49,714 bases of DNA from a virus (lineage: Duplodnaviria > Heunggongvirae > Uroviricota > Caudoviricetes), in the IMG/VR virus record IMGVR_UViG_643348544_000005; one strand, given 5' to 3'. Positions 8,686 to 24,076 of this stretch are shown piece after piece. Position 1 is the first letter of the stretch. Every line of letters starts with the position of its first letter. The translations under genes and the position numbers were made by a program. A model generated the notes under the pieces. It worked only from the letters and a program-made list of their open reading frames with translations, was not told where the DNA came from and made no database searches.

Positions 8686-9585
8686 ATGATTGATCCACTT
8701 ATTAGAAACTTACAGAGTGATATTGCACTACTCCAGCTTTATATCGCGCAACGCAAACAGGCAGGCTTTCATGACATGGAAAGAATAATTGAGTCATTGA
8801 CCATCTTTATGTTTCGCGCGCTGAAAATGGGTGAACTGGTAAACATGAATCAGATTAAAGTTAATTTTCCCGCCATTGATTTAGCTGATAATAAAAACAT
8901 GATAGCAGTTCAAGTTACTACGAATGCAAGTCCAGCAAAAATTAAAAAAACTATCGAATCTTTTGAGGAAACAAATGAAATAGGAGAGAGTCTGAAAGAT
9001 AAATACTCTACTTTATATATTTTTGGTTTTTGTAAAGCCTCAAGATACCTAACTCCAAGTTATTGTAAAATAATCGACCCCAGCCATTTCGTGAATGAAC
9101 TTTGCGATAAAGCAGATGAAGATATGGTCCAGGATATGATTGACGCCATTCGACGCCATCATGATTATACATCATTACATCCATGGAGTGATAAAGATTC
9201 ACTCGAAATTATACTCAATATTATTAATCGCAATGCAATAAAACATCGGATGAGTTGCGAAGGCAGTCTGTCTGATATGCTTACTGGTTTAAAAGAAATT
9301 AATGAAGTAATTACAAAAGGAACAATTCAACGTAAGCAACGTTCAAAATCGATATCTGACTTCAAAGATCAAAGCATGGTGAAATTTATGAGAGGTGTAA
9401 TGGATGATTTGTCTGTTATTCAAGCCATAGTGAACAAATCTAAAGTTAACCAAGGTGATATGGTTTATATAAGCCATGAAGATATGATTAATATTGATAA
9501 ATTAAAAGCTAAAATAGCAAGTGATTCATCAGAGATTGCAAGGCTAAATAATATTGATATAACACTAAATGTTGTTGATTTATAA
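8686..9585 (+). CDS. SMEK-like domain protein (candidate accessory/defence gene in AT-rich island)
   Basis: 299-aa ORF, ATG 8686 with AAGGA SD; AT-rich codon usage unlike flanking phage genes; N-terminal …VNFPAIDLADNKNMIAVQVTTNASPAKIKKTIESFEE… resembles, from memory, the SMEK N-terminal domain family; unverified. Confidence 0.6.
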   Translation: MIDPLIRNLQSDIALLQLYIAQRKQAGFHDMERIIESLTIFMFRALKMGELVNMNQIKVNFPAIDLADNKNMIAVQVTTNASPAKIKKTIESFEETNEIGESLKDKYSTLYIFGFCKASRYLTPSYCKIIDPSHFVNELCDKADEDMVQDMIDAIRRHHDYTSLHPWSDKDSLEIILNIINRNAIKHRMSCEGSLSDMLTGLKEINEVITKGTIQRKQRSKSISDFKDQSMVKFMRGVMDDLSVIQAIVNKSKVNQGDMVYISHEDMINIDKLKAKIASDSSEIARLNNIDITLNVVDL

Positions 9586-9899
9586 TTGTCGATTTAGCAA
9601 AACAGAGAATGCTTTGAAAGTTTCACCGAGAAATATTTATTGTGAACCTCCTTATTGTTTATCGACTTTTACTCTCCGCTCATTGCAGTACTGTCGGAGA
9701 AGGCTACTATGTACAAGAAGCAGCTAACATAAGCGAGCATCACTATTGATATTAGGAAGAGTATATAAAAACTTCATGCTGAACCTTACAAAAGTAGGTA
9801 AACCGGCAATGGCCTAAGTGGCAGGGTCATGTTGATCCGGCACTGCCGAGCTAATAATTAACAAGCAAATCACTCTTTCTAATAATTTGTTGAAATAAA

Positions 9900-10559
9900 C
9901 TAAATATGTATATGTTTACCAACAACCACATATGAACTACCTGCTTTGCTCCATGATTTTATTATTTCTAAATTATTATCTGAGCATATTTTACTTACAG
10001 TATCCACATCTAATAAACCATAGTAGAAAGCATTACGAGAGTTTTGGTATATATACCCATGCAAATGTTTAATACCGCTCTCGTACCTCTTGAAATAAGA
10101 ACTTTTGTATTGATTGACAATCAGTGCTTCACCATCACTCTTTAATAATTCTCTAATCGCACTGAGGACTTTGTGAATTGTGGATTCACATGGAATTGCG
10201 GAAAGCACGTTTGCGCAAAGTATGAAATCATAATGATTTGTTATTTTATCTATATTTTCATAAGAAACAATATTAGCATTCTTATAGTTATTTATCACGT
10301 AATCTGGAATCGTGGTTTGTACACCTCTGATAATTTGCACTCTTTCTAGTTGTCTTCTGGAATCTAAAAATGTCACAGTTTCAAATTTATTTACTAATTG
10401 TTCTGAATATCTAAGTTTTCCACATCCAAAATCAAGGGCATTGCCATTTTTATTAGTGCTTTCAATCTGTTTACAGAGATAGTTAGATGGCATAGTGTGC
10501 GGTTTCGCTGCATTTTCTGAACGTATGTTTATTCCATTTATTTTGTAATTCAAAATCAA
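9900..10559 (-). CDS. Class I SAM-dependent methyltransferase
   Basis: 219-aa ORF (track start is TTG at 10559; alternative ATG at 10493); glycine-rich SAM motif …ALDFGCGKLRY… followed by acidic …VTFLDSR…; begins 7 bp after the stop of the upstream membrane-protein gene. Confidence 0.65.
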   Translation of the reverse strand: MILNYKINGINIRSENAAKPHTMPSNYLCKQIESTNKNGNALDFGCGKLRYSEQLVNKFETVTFLDSRRQLERVQIIRGVQTTIPDYVINNYKNANIVSYENIDKITNHYDFILCANVLSAIPCESTIHKVLSAIRELLKSDGEALIVNQYKSSYFKRYESGIKHLHGYIYQNSRNAFYYGLLDVDTVSKICSDNNLEIIKSWSKAGSSYVVVGKHIHI

Positions 10560-10565
10560 CCTCGT

Positions 10566-11261
10566 TTAAAAAATATTGTTATTGTTAAAGAATTCTTTTA
10601 TTTTGCTATCAGGTATTTGTCTTACTTGGCTTTCTGTTCTTGGTTTAACTGATGCTATGAAAATAAGGAAGTCAAATGCGACAAGAGAAATAATCCACAA
10701 CCAAAGATTAATTAAAGAGCCAGTAACAGAGAATATATTTGTTAATTTGGCGATACTTATTATTAAAATAGTAACAAATGCGATTACTGTATGTTCAAAG
10801 AAAACCCAAAAGTAATAAACTTTGTTCCAGAAAAGTTCAACGTAATGTTTGTCTTTTAACTCTTTAACTTCTGGGTAATACAGTTTACTCATTACCTTGT
10901 GAGATTCATCAGTAGTTAATTTTCTCGTAACGCCTGCAATTTTTGCTAATGGTTTAATAATTAAATGACTATCCCACATCTTCCTTATTCCAATAATTTT
11001 TGCTACATTATTATGTAGATCTAAAGCTCCACTAATTACTGACCAAAAAACTGAAGATGCAATTGGTAATATGCCAAAGGTTAATATCCATTTAATAAAT
11101 TCCTCGTAGTCTTTAACGGGGGGGATATACTTGGCATTAATGCCAACCAATGGCATGTAGCCATAAATGACTAATGATAGGTAAAATATAAATGTAGTAA
11201 TAAAAGTCGCCTTATGGAGCATAGGCAACATTTCATTATAACTCTTTGGTGGTTCTAACAT
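10566..11261 (-). CDS. Hypothetical 4-TM membrane protein
   Basis: 231-aa frame from ATG 11259-11261 with GGAGAG SD (MLEPPKSYNEMLPMLHK…); four long hydrophobic segments; AT-rich; co-directional and tightly linked with the methyltransferase. Confidence 0.65.
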   Translation of the reverse strand: MLEPPKSYNEMLPMLHKATFITTFIFYLSLVIYGYMPLVGINAKYIPPVKDYEEFIKWILTFGILPIASSVFWSVISGALDLHNNVAKIIGIRKMWDSHLIIKPLAKIAGVTRKLTTDESHKVMSKLYYPEVKELKDKHYVELFWNKVYYFWVFFEHTVIAFVTILIISIAKLTNIFSVTGSLINLWLWIISLVAFDFLIFIASVKPRTESQVRQIPDSKIKEFFNNNNIF

Positions 11262-14035: not shown

Positions 14036-14395
14036 ATGCTCATAGATTTGGTTTTACCTTACCCACCGACGGTGAACACTTACTGGCGACGCCGTGGCAG
14101 CACATATTTTATCTCGGAGGAGGGAAAGCGTTATCGCCGGACTGTGGCGCTTATTGTTCGCCAGCAGCGGCTGAAATTAAGCCTGTCCGGAAGGCTGGTA
14201 ATCAGGATTATTGCAGAGCCACCGGATAAGCGCCGTCGCGACCTGGACAATATCCTGAAAGCACCACTGGATGCGCTGACGCATGCAGGACTGTTAATGG
14301 ACGATGAGCAGTTTGATGAAATCAATATTGTACGTGGCCAGCCAGTATCAGGTGGACGGCTGGAGATAAAAATTACAGATGTGGGGTGTGCATGA
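14036..14395 (+). CDS. rusA: Holliday junction resolvase RusA
   Basis: 119-aa ORF MLIDLVLPYPPTVNTYW…RRDLDNILKAPLDAL… matches RusA family; AGAGG SD. Confidence 0.9.
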   Translation: MLIDLVLPYPPTVNTYWRRRGSTYFISEEGKRYRRTVALIVRQQRLKLSLSGRLVIRIIAEPPDKRRRDLDNILKAPLDALTHAGLLMDDEQFDEINIVRGQPVSGGRLEIKITDVGCA

Positions 14396-15081
14396 ATAAC
14401 CAGTATTTACAGTTTGTTCGTGAGCAACTCATGATTGCCACAGCGGATCTCAGTGGGTCGACAAAAGGCCAGCTGGAAGCCTGGCAGGAAAATGCCCTGT
14501 TCGATACGGGGCGTTACAGGCGTAAAAAAATCCGGTACCGCGATGAAGTGACCGGAAAAATGATCACGCGGGATAATCCACCAATCCCGGGAAAACAATC
14601 GCTGGCGAAGGGGACGTCAATTCCTCTGGTCAGTCAGGTTGCTTTTTCTACATCATCATGGCGGCGGGCTGTTTTGTCTCTTGAAGAACATCATAAAGCC
14701 TGGTTGTTGTGGTGTTACAGCGGAAATACTTGCTGGGAGTATCAGATCGCGATAACGCAGTGGGCATGGACAGAATTTAAGACTCACTCTGGTACCAGGA
14801 AAATTGCAGGGAAGACACAGGAACGCCTGAAAAAATTAATCTGGCTGGCTGCACAGGATGTCAGGAGATGGGTTATAGGACATGATATCTACCAGCAACA
14901 GGAGCTTGCCCGTCTGTGTGGGATTAAGCCTGACAACTGGAGCCACAATTATGTGAGCTACTGGCGTGAAATACTCGACATTTTTATGAACCTCGATACC
15001 GAATCTCTGATTTGCACTGTGAAAAGGAGAGCTCAACAAAAAGCGGCATTTTTGCAGCGAGATATTGCAAAAGTCAATTAG
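14392..15081 (+). CDS. Late-gene antiterminator Q-like protein
   Basis: 229-aa frame from ATG 14392 overlapping rusA stop; sits between rusA and a PR'/tR'-like promoter-terminator, the standard Q position; family assignment by position and size. Confidence 0.6.
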   Translation: MNNQYLQFVREQLMIATADLSGSTKGQLEAWQENALFDTGRYRRKKIRYRDEVTGKMITRDNPPIPGKQSLAKGTSIPLVSQVAFSTSSWRRAVLSLEEHHKAWLLWCYSGNTCWEYQIAITQWAWTEFKTHSGTRKIAGKTQERLKKLIWLAAQDVRRWVIGHDIYQQQELARLCGIKPDNWSHNYVSYWREILDIFMNLDTESLICTVKRRAQQKAAFLQRDIAKVN

Positions 15082-15130
15082 ATAGCATATATTTTATGTA
15101 AATGTGATATATTGCTGTAAAGTGTATAAA

Positions 15131-15154
15131 CCCGCTCAAATGTGCGGGTTTTTT
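15131..15154 (+). terminator. tR'-like intrinsic terminator downstream of Q
   Basis: CCCGC-TCAAATGT-GCGGG hairpin followed by TTTTTT; candidate -35/-10 (TTGCAA…TATATT) lies ~40-60 bp upstream, consistent with a late promoter and short leader. Confidence 0.5.
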
Positions 15155-15227
15155 GCTTAACTCTGTGGACCTTTTTATCTGTAGTTGTAATATATGGATA
15201 TTGTTACAATTTAGGTCGGTGAGCTTA

Positions 15228-15992
15228 ATGGAAGAACAGCACGGTAATTACTTTATAAAACGAATTCAGTTGATTGGAAGAGGGGCATTTGGCTTTGTTG
15301 AACACGTTAAGGTTTACAACCTCAATAAAGGTGAATGCGGGGATTATGCTAGAAAGGTCTTAGCACCCGAAAAACCAGAGCTTTTGGCGCAAATAGAGCA
15401 GTTTAGAAGGCGTTTTAAAAGGGAGGTTGTGTATCAATCACATTGCGTACATAGCAATATTGTTCCTATTTATTTGTGCGATTTGTTTGTTGAGAATCCA
15501 TGGTTCATTATGGATAAAGCAGAATGTGATCTTGAGCACGAAATAACGAACAACCTTCTTACAACAGATCAAAAAATTTCAATAGTGAAAATGGTATTAG
15601 ATGGTGTAGCTTACATCCATGCCAAAGGCTATTTACACAGAGATATAAAACCCTTTAATGTTTTGCGATTTAGCGACGGAACATACAAGGTGTCTGATTT
15701 TGGTCTGGTAAAAGATACGAATCCCGAAGGGGATACCACTAAATTGACCGAGATCGGTACCCGTATGGGAAGTACAAGATATATGGCTCCCGAGATTTTA
15801 TATAATGCAGAGTATTCAGTTAAGACTGATGTTTATGCTGTGGGACGGTTAATTGAAGACTTAAATTTAGATGATAAAAAAATAAAGCCTATCATAGCTA
15901 AGTGCACAAGGATGGATAAAGATGATAGATATCAGACAATAGATGATGTGGCGTTTGATTTTGCGCATTCTTTTTTAAGGAGTGAGTCATGA
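15228..15992 (+). CDS. Hanks-type (eukaryotic-like) Ser/Thr protein kinase
   Basis: 254-aa frame from ATG 15228; kinase subdomain motifs read directly: GRGAFGFV (Gly loop), YARKV (Lys), HRDIKPFNV (catalytic loop), DFG, APE; AT-rich. Confidence 0.85.
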   Translation: MEEQHGNYFIKRIQLIGRGAFGFVEHVKVYNLNKGECGDYARKVLAPEKPELLAQIEQFRRRFKREVVYQSHCVHSNIVPIYLCDLFVENPWFIMDKAECDLEHEITNNLLTTDQKISIVKMVLDGVAYIHAKGYLHRDIKPFNVLRFSDGTYKVSDFGLVKDTNPEGDTTKLTEIGTRMGSTRYMAPEILYNAEYSVKTDVYAVGRLIEDLNLDDKKIKPIIAKCTRMDKDDRYQTIDDVAFDFAHSFLRSES

Positions 15993-16732
15993 TTCAGCTG
16001 ATAGCAACTTCATCATTCTCGTATCCAAAAGAACCAGGTAGGGTCAACGAAGATTCATTGCTTCCTCCAAAAATTGTAGGAGACGGCATCTTATTTGCCG
16101 TAGCTGATGGTGTAGGTTCATACTCTGGTGCCAGTTATGCTTCATCCATGGCAATCGCTGAACTTTCAGCATTGACAAGTTTATCTTTTGATGCAGTTCC
16201 GAATGTATTTGCTGAAGTTAAGCGAAAAGTTATGTCGTTAGCTGAAGTTAATGATGAGTTCGATAAAGCTGCTACTACACTTACCTTTTGTTATGTTTGT
16301 GATAGCGGAATTATTATTGGTCATATTGGTGATTGTCGCTTGTATTGCATTGGAGAAAAGAAAGCATACCAATTGACGAAGGACGATACCAGACATCAGA
16401 TGTTAATTGATCAGAATATTTTTAAACCCAGAGATTTGAAGAATAAACCGGGAAAAAATATCTTAACGACTGCCATAGCCTCAAATGTTGATATGGAATA
16501 CGACTGTGATTTTATCCCGTGGAAAGATTTGCCTGGTATTAACGGGTTGTATCATCTGTGTATCATGTCTGATGGAGTTCATAACGTTTGGGAAAAACGC
16601 CCCAGATTTACATCAAATACTATGAGTAATAGTCAGAAGTTTTCTAATGGTATTTTGCGTCGTATAGAGAGAGCCGGACCTGATGATGACTTTTCTTTAG
16701 TAAGTATAATGGTGCGTGTGACGTCAGATTAG
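15989..16732 (+). CDS. PP2C-family Ser/Thr protein phosphatase
   Basis: 247-aa ORF, ATG 15989 overlapping kinase stop (ATGA) with AAGGAG SD; PP2C-like motifs …RVNEDS…, …FAVADGVGSYSG…, …MSDGV…. Confidence 0.85.
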   Translation: MIQLIATSSFSYPKEPGRVNEDSLLPPKIVGDGILFAVADGVGSYSGASYASSMAIAELSALTSLSFDAVPNVFAEVKRKVMSLAEVNDEFDKAATTLTFCYVCDSGIIIGHIGDCRLYCIGEKKAYQLTKDDTRHQMLIDQNIFKPRDLKNKPGKNILTTAIASNVDMEYDCDFIPWKDLPGINGLYHLCIMSDGVHNVWEKRPRFTSNTMSNSQKFSNGILRRIERAGPDDDFSLVSIMVRVTSD

Positions 16733-16805
16733 TTGTATAAACCCAGTAGGGAATGCTAATTTCCCATACTACAGAGTAAAGAAAAACTTAATTTTAATGT
16801 GAAAA

Positions 16806-16828
16806 GGCTGCTATCAGGCGGCCTTTTT
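16806..16828 (+). terminator. Intrinsic terminator after kinase-phosphatase operon
   Basis: GGCTGC-TATCAG-GCGGCC hairpin followed by TTTTT. Confidence 0.5.
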
Positions 16829-16842
16829 ATGTCTGAAAAGCT

Positions 16843-17169
16843 GTGCAGTACGTTAAACACGCTTGTGGTTGTGAATGCCGACTGCGGCGGTATTTTGGCG
16901 TGACAGCGCAGGTGCCGTATACCGATGTCTGGACGCATAAACCGGTGCAGTTCTATCCCGGGAAACATCCGTGCGAAAAACCGGCAGAAATGCTGCAGCA
17001 GATAATCAGCGCAAGCAGTCGTCCGGGAGACCTGGTTGCAGATTTTTTTATGGGCTCAGGTTCAACGGTAAAAGCGGCACTGGCGCTCGGGCGTCGTGCG
17101 ATTGGCGTTGAACTGGAGACCGGACGTTTTGAGCAGACAGTCAGGGAAGTTCAGGATTTAATCGTTTGA
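16843..17169 (+). pseudogene. 3' remnant of a DNA (N6-adenine/N4-cytosine) methyltransferase
   Basis: 108-aa frame ending …DLVADFFMGSGSTVKAALALGRRAIGVELE… (SAM-binding motif-I region as found near the C-terminus of some phage DNA methylases); no N-terminal catalytic region; begins immediately after the kinase/phosphatase terminator. Confidence 0.5.
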
Positions 17170-17218: not shown

Positions 17219-17294
17219 GGCCCTTTAGCTCAGTGGTGAGAGCGAGCGACTCATAATCGCCAGGTCGCTGGTTCAAATCCAGCAAGGGCCACCA
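17219..17294 (+). tRNA. tRNA with CAU anticodon (Ile2/ileZ-like or Met)
   Basis: Cloverleaf read directly: acceptor GGCCCTT/AAGGGCC (7 bp), D-arm GCTC…GAGC, anticodon loop CTCATAA, T-arm GCTGG-TTCAAAT-CCAGC, encoded CCA. Confidence 0.85.
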
Positions 17295-17301
17295 TCACAT
17301 A

Positions 17302-17378
17302 CCGCCATTAGCTCATCAGGAAAGAGCGCCAGCCTTCGAAGCTGGTTGCGCGGAGTTCGGGTCCCCGAAGGCGGTCCA
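17302..17378 (+). tRNA. tRNA-Arg-like (anticodon UCG), imperfect stems
   Basis: D-arm GCTC…GAGC and anticodon arm CCAGC-CTTCGAA-GCTGG are clean; acceptor (CCGCCAT/AAGGCGG) and T-stem (CGGAG/CCCCG) each carry one mismatch and T-loop is TTCGGGT; may be degenerate. Confidence 0.55.
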
Positions 17379-17391
17379 TTATCTGTATCCT

Positions 17392-17468
17392 GCGTTGTTA
17401 GCTCAGCCGGACAGAGCAATTGCCTTCTAAGCAATCGGTCACTGGTTCGAATCCAGTACAACGCGCCA
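17392..17468 (+). tRNA. tRNA-Arg (anticodon UCU)
   Basis: Acceptor GCGTTGT/ACAACGC perfect, D-arm GCTC-AGCCGGACA-GAGC, anticodon arm ATTGC-CTTCTAA-GCAAT, T-arm ACTGG-TTCGAAT-CCAGT, encoded CCA. Confidence 0.85.
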
Positions 17469-17514: not shown

Positions 17515-17730
17515 CTCACAATTTAGGCGGTTGACTGTTGTCTGGTTTGCGGGGAGTTTGTTAAAAGAAACTGGCATGGTGAATCCCCCTGTGCGGAGGG
17601 GCAATCAGCGAGTAGGTATATGGGATAATCGCGGATTCAGGTGCTGGTACTGAATTCACCGGGAGGCACCCGGCACCATGCAATGGCACATAGCGCCACT
17701 CTCCAGCCCCTCTCCGGAGGGGCTTTTCTG
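17515..17730 (+). repeat. Copy 1 of a diverged ~215-bp non-coding module (promoter-like box, conserved hairpins, terminator)
   Basis: Shares with copy 2: CTCACAATT, TTGAC(T/A), GCATGGTGAATCCCCCTG(T/A)GCGGAGGGGC, CACCGGGAGGCACCCGGCACCATG, and CCCCTCTCCGGAGGGG + T-tract. Confidence 0.6.
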
Positions 17731-17982
17731 TGCCGGATACATCACAGTTTCTGGAACCTTAGGTACTACAGTATCAGTCAGGGTGCTATATTTTCAGATG
17801 TGATGAAAGCCTGTCAGCAGGCAGGGCGTATCGGAAATGACCCAGTAGAGAAAACGTTGACTCAGATACCGGTGCTGAGTTACCGGGAAACCGGCATCAC
17901 ATGACCGCTATCCTTCCAGGCCCATCCGCTCCGGTGGGCCTTTTTACTGCAGAAAACAGGTTCCCCGTTAAATGCTATGTTG

Positions 17983-18215
17983 CTCACAATTCAGTAAGTT
18001 GACAGTTGCCTGTCAGACTGGGCATTTGTTAAAAAAATTTCGCATGGTGAATCCCCCTGAGCGGAGGGGCGACTGGTGACGGTATAATCTCTGATTATCA
18101 AAACGAGAATGACGCGGGTTTAGTGGCACCGGGCTGAACTCACCGGGAGGCACCCGGCACCATGTGCATGATGATACAGATACGCGGCTTTAGCCCCTCT
18201 CCGGAGGGGTTTTCT
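17983..18215 (+). repeat. Copy 2 of the diverged non-coding module
   Basis: Same ordered blocks as copy 1, 468 bp downstream; contains an additional TATAAT-like element (GGTATAATC) and extra downstream hairpins (CCCGCG…CGCGGG). Confidence 0.6.
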
Positions 18216-18444
18216 TGTGGGCAAAAAAAGCCCGCGCTGGGAGACGCGGGCGGCAAGGAATAAACAATAAAACGTGAAGTAATATTTCAGCTGGCGAATA
18301 ATACCCCATAGTAATCACTCTGCGCAACTGCGCGGTCTTTTTCGAATTGCGGGCTGTCGTCTCTCTTCTGCCATTGTCCTGTAACTTCCGGACTTCAGCC
18401 CGCTCCTTATTTTACTCACAATATTATCCCGGCCGGGAGGATTC

Positions 18445-20671: not shown

Positions 20672-20986
20672 ATGACTCAAAACTATGAACTGATTGTGAA
20701 AGGGATCCGCAATTTTGAGAATAAAGTTACGGTAACTTTAGCGTTACGGGACAAAAAACGCTTTGACGGTGAAATTTTTGACCTGGACATCTCGCTGGAC
20801 CGTGTTGAAGGTGCCGCGCTGGAGTTTTATGAGGCAGCAGCCAGAAGGAGCATCAGACAGGTCTTCCTGGATGTTGCTGCCGGGTTATGTGAAGGGGACG
20901 AGCTGTTGCCAGAAACGCGCCCCTGTTCAGAGGCGCGGTATACCATAAAAATTAACAGTTCTGATAACTCGATTACGGGTTGTTAG
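20672..20986 (+). CDS. YdfR-like (DUF1327-type) small protein between holin and endolysin
   Basis: 104-aa ORF with ATG 20672; position matches ydfR between essQ and rrrQ in Qin; family assignment from memory. Confidence 0.55.
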   Translation: MTQNYELIVKGIRNFENKVTVTLALRDKKRFDGEIFDLDISLDRVEGAALEFYEAAARRSIRQVFLDVAAGLCEGDELLPETRPCSEARYTIKINSSDNSITGC

Positions 20987-21041
20987 CTTTTTGCAGTTGG
21001 CTTTCCAGTATCTTTCATTGGTAGCATCCTGATAAATATCC

Positions 21042-22446: not shown

Positions 22447-23067
22447 ATGAAAGATCAAGATGTTAGGTTCGCGGTGCATCATAAGCTTTTGAAAGAATCG
22501 CATTTAGATCCAGACTGCCTTGTGGTCGATGAATTTTCCATATCCCTTGGCGCCAGTAGAGCAGACATTGCTGTAATAAATGGTGTTATACACGGGTACG
22601 AGCTCAAAAGTGAATATGACTCTTTGGAGCGTTTGCCTCTTCAAATCAAGCATTATTCTTCTGTAATGGACAAGGTTACTCTTGTCGTAGCTGAGAAACA
22701 CCTTGAGGGAGCATTAAAGTTAATCCCAGGTTGGTGGGGCGTTAAAACGGTTTCTGTTGGGCCAAAAGGCGCCATTCTTATAAAGCACATGCGTGGAGAA
22801 AAGCTTAATCGAAACCATGACACATTGATGCTCGCTCAATTGCTTTGGAAAGATGAATGTATCGACGTACTTGAACGATGGGGCTATTCCAAAGGAATCA
22901 AAAGCAAGCCCCGATTTGAGTTATGGAATATTATTGCGGAAAATATTCCAATAGCGAATCTCAGGCCTGAAGTCAGAACAGCCTTAAAGAAACGCGTAGG
23001 CTGGAAAGTTAAGGCTTGGCAGGCTGAGTCTGCGCCAACCAATAAAGCTGTCTCACGACTAACGTAA
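22447..23067 (+). CDS. PD-(D/E)xK nuclease-like protein (candidate defence/accessory gene)
   Basis: 206-aa ORF, ATG 22447 with AAGGAG SD; …CLVVDEFSI…RADIAVIN…IHGYELKSE… fits a D…ExK restriction-endonuclease-like motif; AT-rich; resemblance to sce7726-type family is by memory only. Confidence 0.6.
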   Translation: MKDQDVRFAVHHKLLKESHLDPDCLVVDEFSISLGASRADIAVINGVIHGYELKSEYDSLERLPLQIKHYSSVMDKVTLVVAEKHLEGALKLIPGWWGVKTVSVGPKGAILIKHMRGEKLNRNHDTLMLAQLLWKDECIDVLERWGYSKGIKSKPRFELWNIIAENIPIANLRPEVRTALKKRVGWKVKAWQAESAPTNKAVSRLT

Positions 23068-24076
23068 TATGGTGCGTATGTGCAACTTTACGCCATTCTT
23101 TAGAGCCGCCAGATTTGTTAGCGCCTAATGATCTTTGGTAAATGTAATCATCCCCCCAACTAAATTTGGAGCCAAAGACTTGATACTCTGGCGAACTAAC
23201 AAGGGTAGTACATAAGTTTTTAGTTTGGCCCCATCCATTTCCTTTAACTGCGGTACCTTTTACAAAGATCCATGAGGTATCGTTCGAATATCTCACTGAG
23301 ACATACTGAGACATGAAGCGTGGGTCTACGCTCGTAATGGTAGAGCTAGCGGTGGGATAATCACTAAAACTTGGCGTTCTTCCATTGCTAAAATTCTGTA
23401 CTACGTACATCCAAAGATCGTATTCATGGCGCGGAATATGATGAACTTGATGTTGCGGTATCCCTGCCTGTGATGCCGGGTATGCGGTTGAAGATAAAAT
23501 CAAGTTTCTCCACGGAGCTTGGCCTGATAATGTGTTGACCATGCTTAATGCTTGTTGTTTTAAACTATCAGTTGCGTTTTGAATATCTCCAAAATCAATG
23601 ATTACATCAATTAAACTAGGATGAATATTTAAGTGGTTAACCAGACTTGTGAATTGGTGCCATGTCTGGGGGGTGATAGATATAGCGAGCCCATTGATTA
23701 AGTTGCGTTGAACAGCATGTATATAGTTTGTTGAATATGCGGGAGAAACAACAGGGATAATTTCCTTACCATTTACTCTAGCATCTTGGATACACATATC
23801 TAGAGGATGATGGCGGCTCGAACCATGTTTATCTAAATATTTAACATCCAGCAAAACAGGACGATTGGCTTTCCAGGATGCCGCAAGGTTAATACCGAAG
23901 TCAGATAAGTAAGAACTCAAATTCTTCTTGTAGCATTCGTTTTCATAATCCCAGTCTATGTCTGGAATGGTAATGATCGGAGTAAAACCAGAGAGCGTAG
24001 TTTGATCTAAAAGCATCAGAGATTCATATTCAGCAGGCTTCCATTTCAGCTGTGGATAATATTGATGTTGACTCAT
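23009..24076 (-). CDS. Hypothetical 355-aa protein (possibly beta-protein/sce7725-like), convergent partner of the nuclease-like gene
   Basis: ATG 24074-24076 with AAGGAG SD; 3' end overlaps the convergent gene by 59 bp (23009-23067); AT-rich; no motif recognised by eye. Confidence 0.6.
   Translation of the reverse strand: MSQHQYYPQLKWKPAEYESLMLLDQTTLSGFTPIITIPDIDWDYENECYKKNLSSYLSDFGINLAASWKANRPVLLDVKYLDKHGSSRHHPLDMCIQDARVNGKEIIPVVSPAYSTNYIHAVQRNLINGLAISITPQTWHQFTSLVNHLNIHPSLIDVIIDFGDIQNATDSLKQQALSMVNTLSGQAPWRNLILSSTAYPASQAGIPQHQVHHIPRHEYDLWMYVVQNFSNGRTPSFSDYPTASSTITSVDPRFMSQYVSVRYSNDTSWIFVKGTAVKGNGWGQTKNLCTTLVSSPEYQVFGSKFSWGDDYIYQRSLGANKSGGSKEWRKVAHTHHITLVVRQLYWLAQTQPAKP

Follow-up and report, generated by a model that had tools for sequence, protein, structure and literature searches.

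Prophage kinase systems (933W Stk, Stk2, PD-T4-6, KKP) represent an emerging class of phosphorylation-based immunity, and the kinase of phage T7 serves counter-defence by the same chemistry. In case of KKP (PfkA/PfkB/PfpC; Guo et al. 2024), a prophage-encoded PP2C phosphatase acts as antitoxin to kinase toxins and the system protects against lytic phages, defence being triggered once a phage protein inhibits the phosphatase; KKP also governs Pf prophage activation via phosphorylation of MvaU (PMC11341870). The present analysis concerns a 49,714-nucleotide (nt) stretch of a Caudoviricetes genome (IMG/VR record IMGVR_UViG_643348544_000005), referred to as the window, which harbours on the plus strand a gene for a Hanks-type Ser/Thr kinase (15228..15992) followed by a gene for a PP2C (PPM) Ser/Thr phosphatase (15989..16732). 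The pair is a two-gene variant within the known class of prophage kinase/phosphatase modules and the simplest possible version of it, i.e., a kinase domain and a PP2C, each without additional parts. The stretch between about 15116 and 16881 constitutes a moron, an AT-rich, horizontally mobile cassette composed of a promoter-like element, the kinase gene, the coupled PP2C gene and a terminator.

The pair resembles KKP in combining a prophage-borne Hanks kinase with a PP2C of the PF13672 type, in its Gram-negative hosts and in being mobile accessory cargo. However, KKP comprises three genes (one PP2C and two kinases), whereas the window cassette contains one kinase and one PP2C between terminators. 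KKP kinases carry C-terminal domains (cold-shock in PfkA-like, FHA in PfkB-like kinases), considered defining by the authors, while the window kinase has neither. Moreover, KKP resides in P2, P4, Mu-like and Pf prophages (Pf6 among others), whereas pairs of the window type are mostly found in lambdoid hotspots. Since the second kinase and both accessory domains are missing, membership in KKP was rejected, and the pair is, as judged from sequence comparison, a minimal two-gene relative standing outside KKP itself.

The Stk protein of 933W is likewise a Hanks kinase in an accessory slot of a lambdoid prophage, and sister clades of the pair share its position. It differs in length (348 amino acids, aa) and by the absence of a partner phosphatase; identity amounts to only 24 % over 215 aligned positions in the C-lobe (pairwise E=6e-13), on which grounds membership in the 933W Stk family was rejected. 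Phages of the 933W type were not among the hits when deposited phages were searched by tblastn with the window kinase (E<=1e-8). Stk reportedly excludes phage HK97, an observation ascribed to Friedman et al. 2011. T7 gp0.7-type kinases possess DPV in place of DFG and a kinase-shutoff architecture; by contrast, the window kinase has a canonical DFG (157-159) and no extra domain, and membership in this family was rejected on both counts. Stk2 (Staphylococcus), PD-T4-6 (E. coli) and MAD6 are larger kinases with extra regions and without a dedicated PP2C. PD-T4-6 is encoded by a stand-alone gene, whereas the window family is paired with PP2C at every locus read, and MAD6 belongs to a multi-gene methylation system (MADS). 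The profile search called for in the preliminary description, which had aimed at placing the kinase relative to characterised phage kinases, yielded matches to the catalytic core (mad6, 6e-40; PD-T4-6, 1e-34; Stk2, 1e-27, as best defence-library matches). The PD-T4-6 match (E=1.4e-34) covers positions 11-201 of 327, i.e., the catalytic core, and scores lower than mad6.

A Hanks kinase and a PP2C also share one operon in chromosomal Stk1/Stp1 (PknB/PstP-type) systems, and the best NCBIfam models are Stp1/IreP for the phosphatase (2e-27) and Stk1 for the kinase, with scores far below the equivalog cut-offs (96 vs 230 bits; 103 vs 450 bits). The window pair differs from these systems by lacking a transmembrane segment and a PASTA domain, by its reversed gene order and by its sporadic occurrence on phages, in contrast to a core gene pair. 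An NleH/YpkA-like effector kinase of type III secretion was rejected in view of the partner phosphatase, the lack of effector features and the spread over secretion-unrelated genera and phage types.

The kinase (254 aa; WP_000392435.1; assigned by Pfam, PGAP and family alignment) consists of the kinase domain only. It matches the Pfam Pkinase profile PF00069 with E=1.5e-33 and 116.7 bits (curated cut-off 31.7), and the Pkinase and PK_Tyr_Ser-Thr profiles are the only Pfam hits along its length. The translation contains GRGAFGFV, the β3 lysine (YARK), HRDIKPFN as catalytic loop of the Ser/Thr type, DFG and APE, in agreement with the minimal eukaryotic-like kinase of the preliminary description. 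An alignment of 42 relatives (43-74 % identity) revealed as invariant G17/G19/G22, K43, E66, H137-R138-D139-K141-N144, D157-F158-G159, E189, D201 and R234. Since all Hanks catalytic positions are invariant in this alignment, a pseudokinase, which the preliminary description had named as a possible refutation, was ruled out; low pN/pS (ratio of nonsynonymous to synonymous polymorphism) points the same way. The AlphaFold2 model (pLDDT 89.5, pTM 0.87) has the activation loop (169-177) as its sole disordered part, and Foldseek aligned it to kinase domains including M. tuberculosis PknB with TM-scores of 0.7-0.79, as expected for the bilobal fold. The activation loop contains a nearly invariant threonine, T174. 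Translation starts at ATG 15228, the choice of PGAP, preceded by a ribosome-binding site (GGTGAG, 15218-15223); M1 is shared by all family members, and the alternative start TTG 15153 was discarded on account of the PGAP start and this invariance.

The phosphatase (247 aa; WP_000615423.1; assigned by Pfam, PGAP and alignment) matches Pfam PP2C_2 (PF13672) with E=3.9e-14 and 53.1 bits (cut-off 24). Among 15 members, D22, D40-G41-G43, G114-D115, S194-D195-G196 and D233-D234 are invariant, so that the metal-binding aspartates of PP2C motifs I, II, VIII and XI are all present. Comparison of the two E. coli alleles gave pN/pS values of 0.04 (kinase) and 0.11 (PP2C), and both proteins appear active and under purifying selection. 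In a match to phrog_5650, PP2C covers profile positions 273-520 of 565, which may indicate that longer or fused relatives exist. The start codon of PP2C overlaps the kinase stop codon as ATGA (15989-15992), as read in the preliminary description. Of 11 loci checked, 10 share this arrangement, the exception being that of Vibrio with TAATG. Kinase-then-PP2C order and adjacency were found in 80/80 viral loci, a set that was itself seeded with PP2C (80 IMG/VR contigs read of 121 matched; 33 kinase clusters at 90 % identity), as well as in each genomic locus inspected.

The kinase-then-PP2C pair represents a compact mobile family. About 200 close relatives of the kinase (240-265 aa) were retrieved from Enterobacterales, Pseudomonas, Vibrio, Aeromonas, Haemophilus and Xanthomonas, and the PP2C subfamily comprises about 19 clusters (50 % identity) at E<=1e-30 among 1.84 billion proteins. 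A kinase-seeded contig scan (HRD[IL]KPxN and DFG patterns) was swamped by generic kinases and delivered one true family locus. Searching deposited phage genomes at the DNA level gave zero matches. At the protein level (tblastn as above; 50,697 deposited phage records), only lambda-like phiES15 (two records) and Flotzy turned out to carry the pair, both of which carry Q and lysis modules; phiES15 was induced from its host by ultraviolet light. No virulent phage with the pair was detected among these records.

Of 5426 complete E. coli genomes, 50 (~1 %) carry the cassette, whereas more than 3200 match some of the surrounding Q/methyltransferase/tRNA backbone, many of them only its tRNA end. It is therefore accessory and does not belong to the core of lambdoid phages, the latter being a further refutation that the preliminary description had envisaged. 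Thirty genomes carry the cassette at 99.7-100 % identity and 19 a ~95 % allele, including enterotoxigenic E. coli (ETEC) E24377A. Forty-eight pairs are intact, one has an N-terminally truncated kinase with intact PP2C, one has both genes broken by insertion sequences (IS), and none among the 50 has lost PP2C alone, a decay count too small to carry weight. Pathogens with the pair include enteroaggregative E. coli (EAEC) 55989, ETEC E24377A and avian pathogenic E. coli (APEC) BEN2908; the family also occurs in environmental and commensal genera (Hafnia, Raoultella, P. putida, Vibrio) and in isolates from marine sediment, soil and water. Presence in ~1 % of complete E. coli genomes, among them the reference pathogens 55989 and E24377A, makes the pair easily testable. 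In strain STEC388 (L187, 5289-7516), an IS1-bounded deletion extends from exo through Q to 25 nt before the kinase ATG, leaving the pair intact and Q gone.

The window sequence agrees exactly with that of E. coli 55989 (NC_011748.1), where the cassette lies inside a lambdoid prophage integrated beside ompW, i.e., in the accessory hotspot between Q and the lysis genes. As proposed in the preliminary description, the pair follows directly behind Q (14386..15081, plus strand; PF06323 type, Pfam E=1.1e-83, also called by PGAP) and a tR'-like hairpin (15128-15151), is AT-rich (GC content 0.38, flanks 0.51 and 0.53), ends at its own terminator hairpin (16803-16826; z = -4.5 on RNA folding) and is succeeded by the 3' remnant of an N6/N4 DNA methyltransferase gene (16882..17169, plus strand; PF01555 profile positions 134-219 of 221). 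Lower GC of the pair than of its flanks was observed in 80/80 viral loci (0.368 vs 0.464).

Comparison of the Q-to-tRNA interval in related prophages, likewise proposed there, confirmed an insertion. In the cassette-free strain 1532MA, Q is followed by a small hypothetical gene, an intact methyltransferase gene and the tRNA; window homology to this strain ends at 15115 and picks up again at 16882. In E24377A, the order Q, kinase-phosphatase, hypothetical gene, intact methyltransferase gene represents a clean insertion relative to 1532MA. The further assumption that the cassette had replaced the 5' part of the methyltransferase gene had to be abandoned: E24377A carries the cassette together with the intact gene, MS8345, which has a different Q and lacks the cassette, shares the truncation joint from window position 16850 onward, and cassette-free 933W has an even shorter remnant behind a terminator. 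The truncation (the METHYLTRANSFERASE remnant) is thus best described, from these alignments, as a shared and pre-existing recombination scar of the hotspot, independent of the cassette. Differently truncated methyltransferase genes each follow a terminator and then TTTTTATGnCnG (window 16833-16890; L096, 2460-2540; L183 from 933W, 20929-20990), which suggests that the gap between Q and the tRNA genes was repeatedly rebuilt by terminator-adjacent joins.

Morons, in the sense of Juhala and Hendrix, are inserts between genes that are adjacent in relatives, with their own promoter and terminator and deviating composition. Insertion between neighbours, an own terminator and deviating GC are all seen here, and with a promoter-like element in addition, the genes, terminator and foreign composition fit a classic moron. 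Lambdoid morons (bor, lom, stx, rexAB) show the same traits, the promoter being putative in case of the window, and share their hotspots (Q-to-S, Rz-to-terminase and repressor-downstream) with the pair; they differ in cargo, the pair being a two-enzyme phosphorylation module.

Putative transcription signals of the phage precede the pair. A putative pR'-like late promoter (TTGCAA-17-TATATT; 15065..15093, plus strand) overlaps the end of Q; its assignment is based on a promoter scan, on conservation in the cassette-free relative L095 and on a geometry like that of the annotated pR' and terminator of 933W. Between it and the kinase lies a tR'-like intrinsic terminator (15128..15157, plus strand) with an 8-bp GC stem and a T run, the stem being conserved and the loop variable in the E24377A and L125 alleles. 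An upstream terminator was found at 25 of 27 Q-slot loci, at none in the other classified slots and at 3 of 15 unclassified loci; it therefore represents the tR' of the phage rather than cargo.

The cassette itself carries a sigma-70-like element, TGGACC (15166-15171)-16-TAATAT (15188-15193), on the plus strand (15166..15193), recognised as a shared motif, with its -10 hexamer ending 34 nt before the kinase ATG. The motif T[AG]G[AC][CT][CTA]-N16-18-TAnn[AT]T with the -10 end 30-36 nt before ATG occurs in 11 of 39 diverged non-redundant cassettes, as compared to 1.4 +/- 1.0 (maximum 6) in shuffles and 2 on the reverse strand, figures that are suggestive and short of proof since the motif was defined after data inspection. 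Motif-bearing cassettes come from Q, methyltransferase and Rz slots and from one unclassified locus. Within the 75 nt before the ATG, the E. coli alleles differ at 2 sites, with a synonymous divergence of 0.13-0.15; accordingly, the leader appears conserved beyond synonymous sites, i.e., constrained. An inverted repeat (TTGTAAT-N11-GTTACAA; 15185..15209, plus strand) overlaps the putative -10 hexamer, and the sole two leader differences of the E24377A allele (L097) fall on paired repeat positions (T>G and G>C, giving TTGTAAG..CTTACAA), which might be explained by compensation within an RNA stem or an operator. Overall folding of the leader is non-significant (z = +0.5) despite the repeat, and an Rfam search of the leader returned nothing convincing, a Leu_leader match being below threshold and overlapping the tR' hairpin.

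The intrinsic terminator closing the cassette (16803..16832, plus strand) is strong and, owing to A-tract and U-tract flanks, may be bidirectional; a terminator no more than 260 nt after PP2C is present in 69/80 viral loci. Q-modified polymerase is insensitive to such a terminator; only unmodified transcripts are affected, being kept from running into the lysis genes. Because the cassette brings a terminator and a position-locked promoter-like motif, expression of the pair in the lysogen, beyond Q-driven read-through, is likely. The preliminary description had considered expression from the late promoter rather than in the lysogen; read-through by Q-modified polymerase is compatible with the first part, whereas the exclusion of the lysogen is disfavoured by the terminator and motif.

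The genomic positions of the pair in the viral set are diverse. It was found after Q at 27 loci (5 clusters), after the lysis genes and before terminase at 9 loci (8 clusters), after the repressor or N at 16 loci (7 clusters), between head and tail genes at 6 loci (1 cluster) and in the early-left region or beside SieB at 7 loci (3 clusters), with 15 loci (11 clusters) unclassified. The slot between Q and holin/lysis genes is occupied behind three unrelated Q families (PF06323, PF06530, PF03589), namely in Raoultella, Yersinia, Hafnia, Cronobacter phage phiES15, Providencia and Aeromonas, while the Rz-to-small-terminase slot is used in Escherichia phage Flotzy, Enterobacter and Serratia. The after-Q slot is thus real and recurrent, yet one among several standard accessory hotspots. 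In E. coli SCU-113, the pair (kinase 47 % identical to that of the window) lies directly after the repressor and before kil-gam-bet-exo. The stk gene of 933W occupies the same repressor-downstream position inside the pM operon, and lambda rexAB does so as well; this slot is a lysogen-expressed position. Outside these arrangements, the pair is located after recT and ssb near an integrase gene in Haemophilus, in an IS-rich island in P. putida and at the end of a non-lambdoid, PM2-like prophage in Vibrio. Wherever the cassette was seen in a lambdoid late region, its genes point in the direction of the late operon. Hence, the late-promoter arrangement put forward at the outset holds as far as co-orientation directly behind Q and tR' and recurrence of the Q slot are concerned, but it does not hold for the module as such, which also resides in repressor, early-left and non-lambdoid slots.

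Several of these loci deserve separate mention. In Vibrio vulnificus (L092, 8001-9493), the pair is situated at the edge of a small prophage with a PM2-type coat protein (PF18628/PF25513); therefore, the cassette also travels with corticovirus-like elements. In contigs L162-164, L177 and L179-182, a divergent pair (~41 % identical) lies between the genes for the major capsid (Gp13-like) and the tail terminator of an unrelated, siphovirus-like phage. In an Aeromonas caviae prophage (L102, 2236-13392), the gap between Q and holin has grown to ~10 kb and contains umuDC, the pair, com plus a methyltransferase gene, an SRA-HNH type IV restriction enzyme and AbiEi/AbiEii; judged by its predicted gene content, it is effectively a defence island within the late operon. 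SieB is among the neighbours of the pair in some viral loci. In the prophage of the window itself, the Rz-to-terminase slot (22447-24076; L001, 25368-26997) holds two convergent, overlapping genes of defence type, one annotated as sce7726 family and matching the PADLOC cll profile (3.8e-31), the other matching Beta_protein PF14350 (7e-56) and PD-Lambda-2_C/beta profiles; together they look like a partial candidate for gop-beta-cll/PD-Lambda-2-like defence.

From analogy and gene neighbourhood we infer a defence role, and the pair is tentatively read, at somewhat less than an even chance, as a toxin/antitoxin-like moron for abortive infection or exclusion. The kinase would be the effector or toxin, phosphorylating host and/or phage proteins on serine and threonine, and PP2C, through ATGA-coupled synthesis, would hold kinase output low by dephosphorylating the activation loop and/or the substrates, a logic resembling that of type-VII-like toxin/antitoxin systems as for KKP. 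Low-level synthesis of the pair in the lysogen would start from its own promoter and also result from leakage through tR', while the 3' terminator would halt unmodified transcripts ahead of the tRNA and lysis genes. An incoming phage upsetting the kinase/phosphatase balance would unleash the kinase, whereupon infection would be aborted or excluded. Upon induction, Q-modified polymerase would pass both terminators and co-amplify kinase and PP2C. Kinase toxicity, neutralisation by PP2C, activity of the cassette promoter, the phage trigger and protection are all proposed here by the same analogy. A defence role is supported by lysogen-expressed slots (7 of 33 clusters directly after the repressor), by defence-type neighbours and by the failure to find the pair in any virulent phage among the records searched. 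The complete catalytic residue sets, the strict coupling of the two genes, the moron anatomy, the best defence-library matches of the kinase and the KKP precedent point in this direction as well. If the pair does defend, its trigger and substrates would reveal the needs of a minimal kinase/phosphatase sensor.

A number of observations weigh against defence. Neither the kinase nor PP2C has a sensor domain, and the matches in the defence library span the generic catalytic domain only (~200 of 290-660 profile positions). A sigma-70 scan found no match reaching threshold in the 76-nt leader of the window, and generic sigma-70 scores of the upstream regions, taken locus by locus, were no better than those of shuffles in this AT-rich DNA; to this the definition of the promoter-like motif after inspection has to be added. 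The decay pattern in E. coli is based on too few copies to help, and a literature search including the RefSeq accessions retrieved no functional study of the kinase-phosphatase pair. Finally, at least 14 of the 33 clusters are located in late operons (Q, Rz and head-to-tail slots), which would also suit a role in the lytic cycle.

The last point leads to the rival that survives best, albeit as an unlikely one, namely a late-expressed factor of benefit to the phage, transcribed essentially from pR' under Q only and reprogramming host proteins during virion production. It might disarm defences, block late superinfection or tune lysis or replication, with the phosphatase limiting or timing the kinase. 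The start of the cassette right after tR', the lack of an above-threshold promoter before it in the window and its co-orientation with the late operon, together with the share of late slots just given, agree with such a function, as does carriage by two propagated phages, phiES15 and Flotzy. There is also a precedent in the T7 kinase, a broad anti-defence factor (PMC13645617). However, members of the same family reside in repressor-operon and early-left slots beyond the reach of pR' and in non-lambdoid elements, the conserved 3' terminator would be pointless for Q-modified polymerase, and no virulent phage among the 50,697 records carries the pair. Furthermore, the kinase has the canonical DFG rather than the DPV of T7-kinase relatives, and late expression would come too late against entry-acting defences.

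A combined explanation, which we regard as rather improbable, assigns Q-dependent, self-limiting host reprogramming to the late-operon copies, including that of the window, and lysogen immunity to the repressor-slot copies, so that wiring would decide on which side the module acts. A late burst of kinase would then phosphorylate host defence or housekeeping proteins or bar superinfecting phages, and the co-translated phosphatase would set its amplitude; if true, this host-reprogramming pair would be the temperate-phage counterpart of the T7 kinase. Occurrence of the same cassette in lysogen- and late-expressed positions constitutes a natural experiment on expression context versus module role.

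Lower still in probability is a regulator of the phage's own lysogeny/induction switch or of co-resident prophages, acting via H-NS/StpA-like nucleoid proteins or phage regulators. KKP provides a precedent by activating Pf through MvaU (PMC11341870), and a reversible kinase/phosphatase pair would be suited to switching. Many copies adjoin the regulators cI, N or Q, and several lambdoid prophages are common in E. coli, with up to 12 places of the Q/methyltransferase/tRNA type per genome. Against this stands that DNA-binding, FHA and cold-shock domains are missing from both proteins; moreover, the exchange of the module among unrelated kinds of phage and islands outside phages speaks against its being closely tied to a single circuit.

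Signalling by lysogenic conversion, in which the lysogen would profit from altered host physiology (stress tolerance, biofilm, virulence) independently of other phages, has a slim chance. Hanks kinase/PP2C pairs are said to regulate physiology in many bacteria, the pair is found in the pathogenic lineages EAEC 55989, ETEC E24377A and APEC BEN2908, and its position is analogous to that of stx in 933W-type phages. Yet the family is widespread in environmental and commensal genera, secretion signals and effector features are absent, and the neighbours are of defence type rather than virulence genes. The least probable explanation is a pure addiction module that stabilises the prophage by post-segregational killing without a role against other phages: the translationally coupled, toxin/antitoxin-like architecture, the intact pair in the heavily deleted, Q-less prophage remnant of STEC388 and the lack of copies with PP2C alone lost would agree with it, but it requires an unstable antitoxin while nothing points to a labile PP2C, the kinase-first order is unusual for classical toxin/antitoxin pairs, and the one copy with both genes IS-broken demonstrates that loss is tolerated.

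In the window, the genes around the cassette are arranged in the order DUF968, RusA, Q, kinase, PP2C, methyltransferase remnant, three tRNAs, SASA/DUF6645 esterase, holin, lysozyme and spanin. The three tRNA genes (17219..17468, plus strand) are of the ileZ-argN-argO type. The first of them (17219-17294) is called Met (anticodon CAT) by ARAGORN and Ile by PGAP; it is of the ileZ type as in 933W and presumably lysidine-modified. Between the tRNAs and the esterase gene, tandem copies of the STnc100 small RNA family (RF02076) are located at 17545-17735, 17774-17947 and 18013-18222, two of them strong and one weak (136, 30 and 161 bits), each ended by a terminator hairpin. Another accessory insertion is an AT-rich island (GC ~0.30) in the early-right region (window 8686-11261; L001, 11607-14182), encoding a SMEK-domain protein (PADLOC Aga_REase-PNTD match, 1.2e-20), a class I SAM methyltransferase and, on the opposite strand, an unannotated protein of 231 aa.

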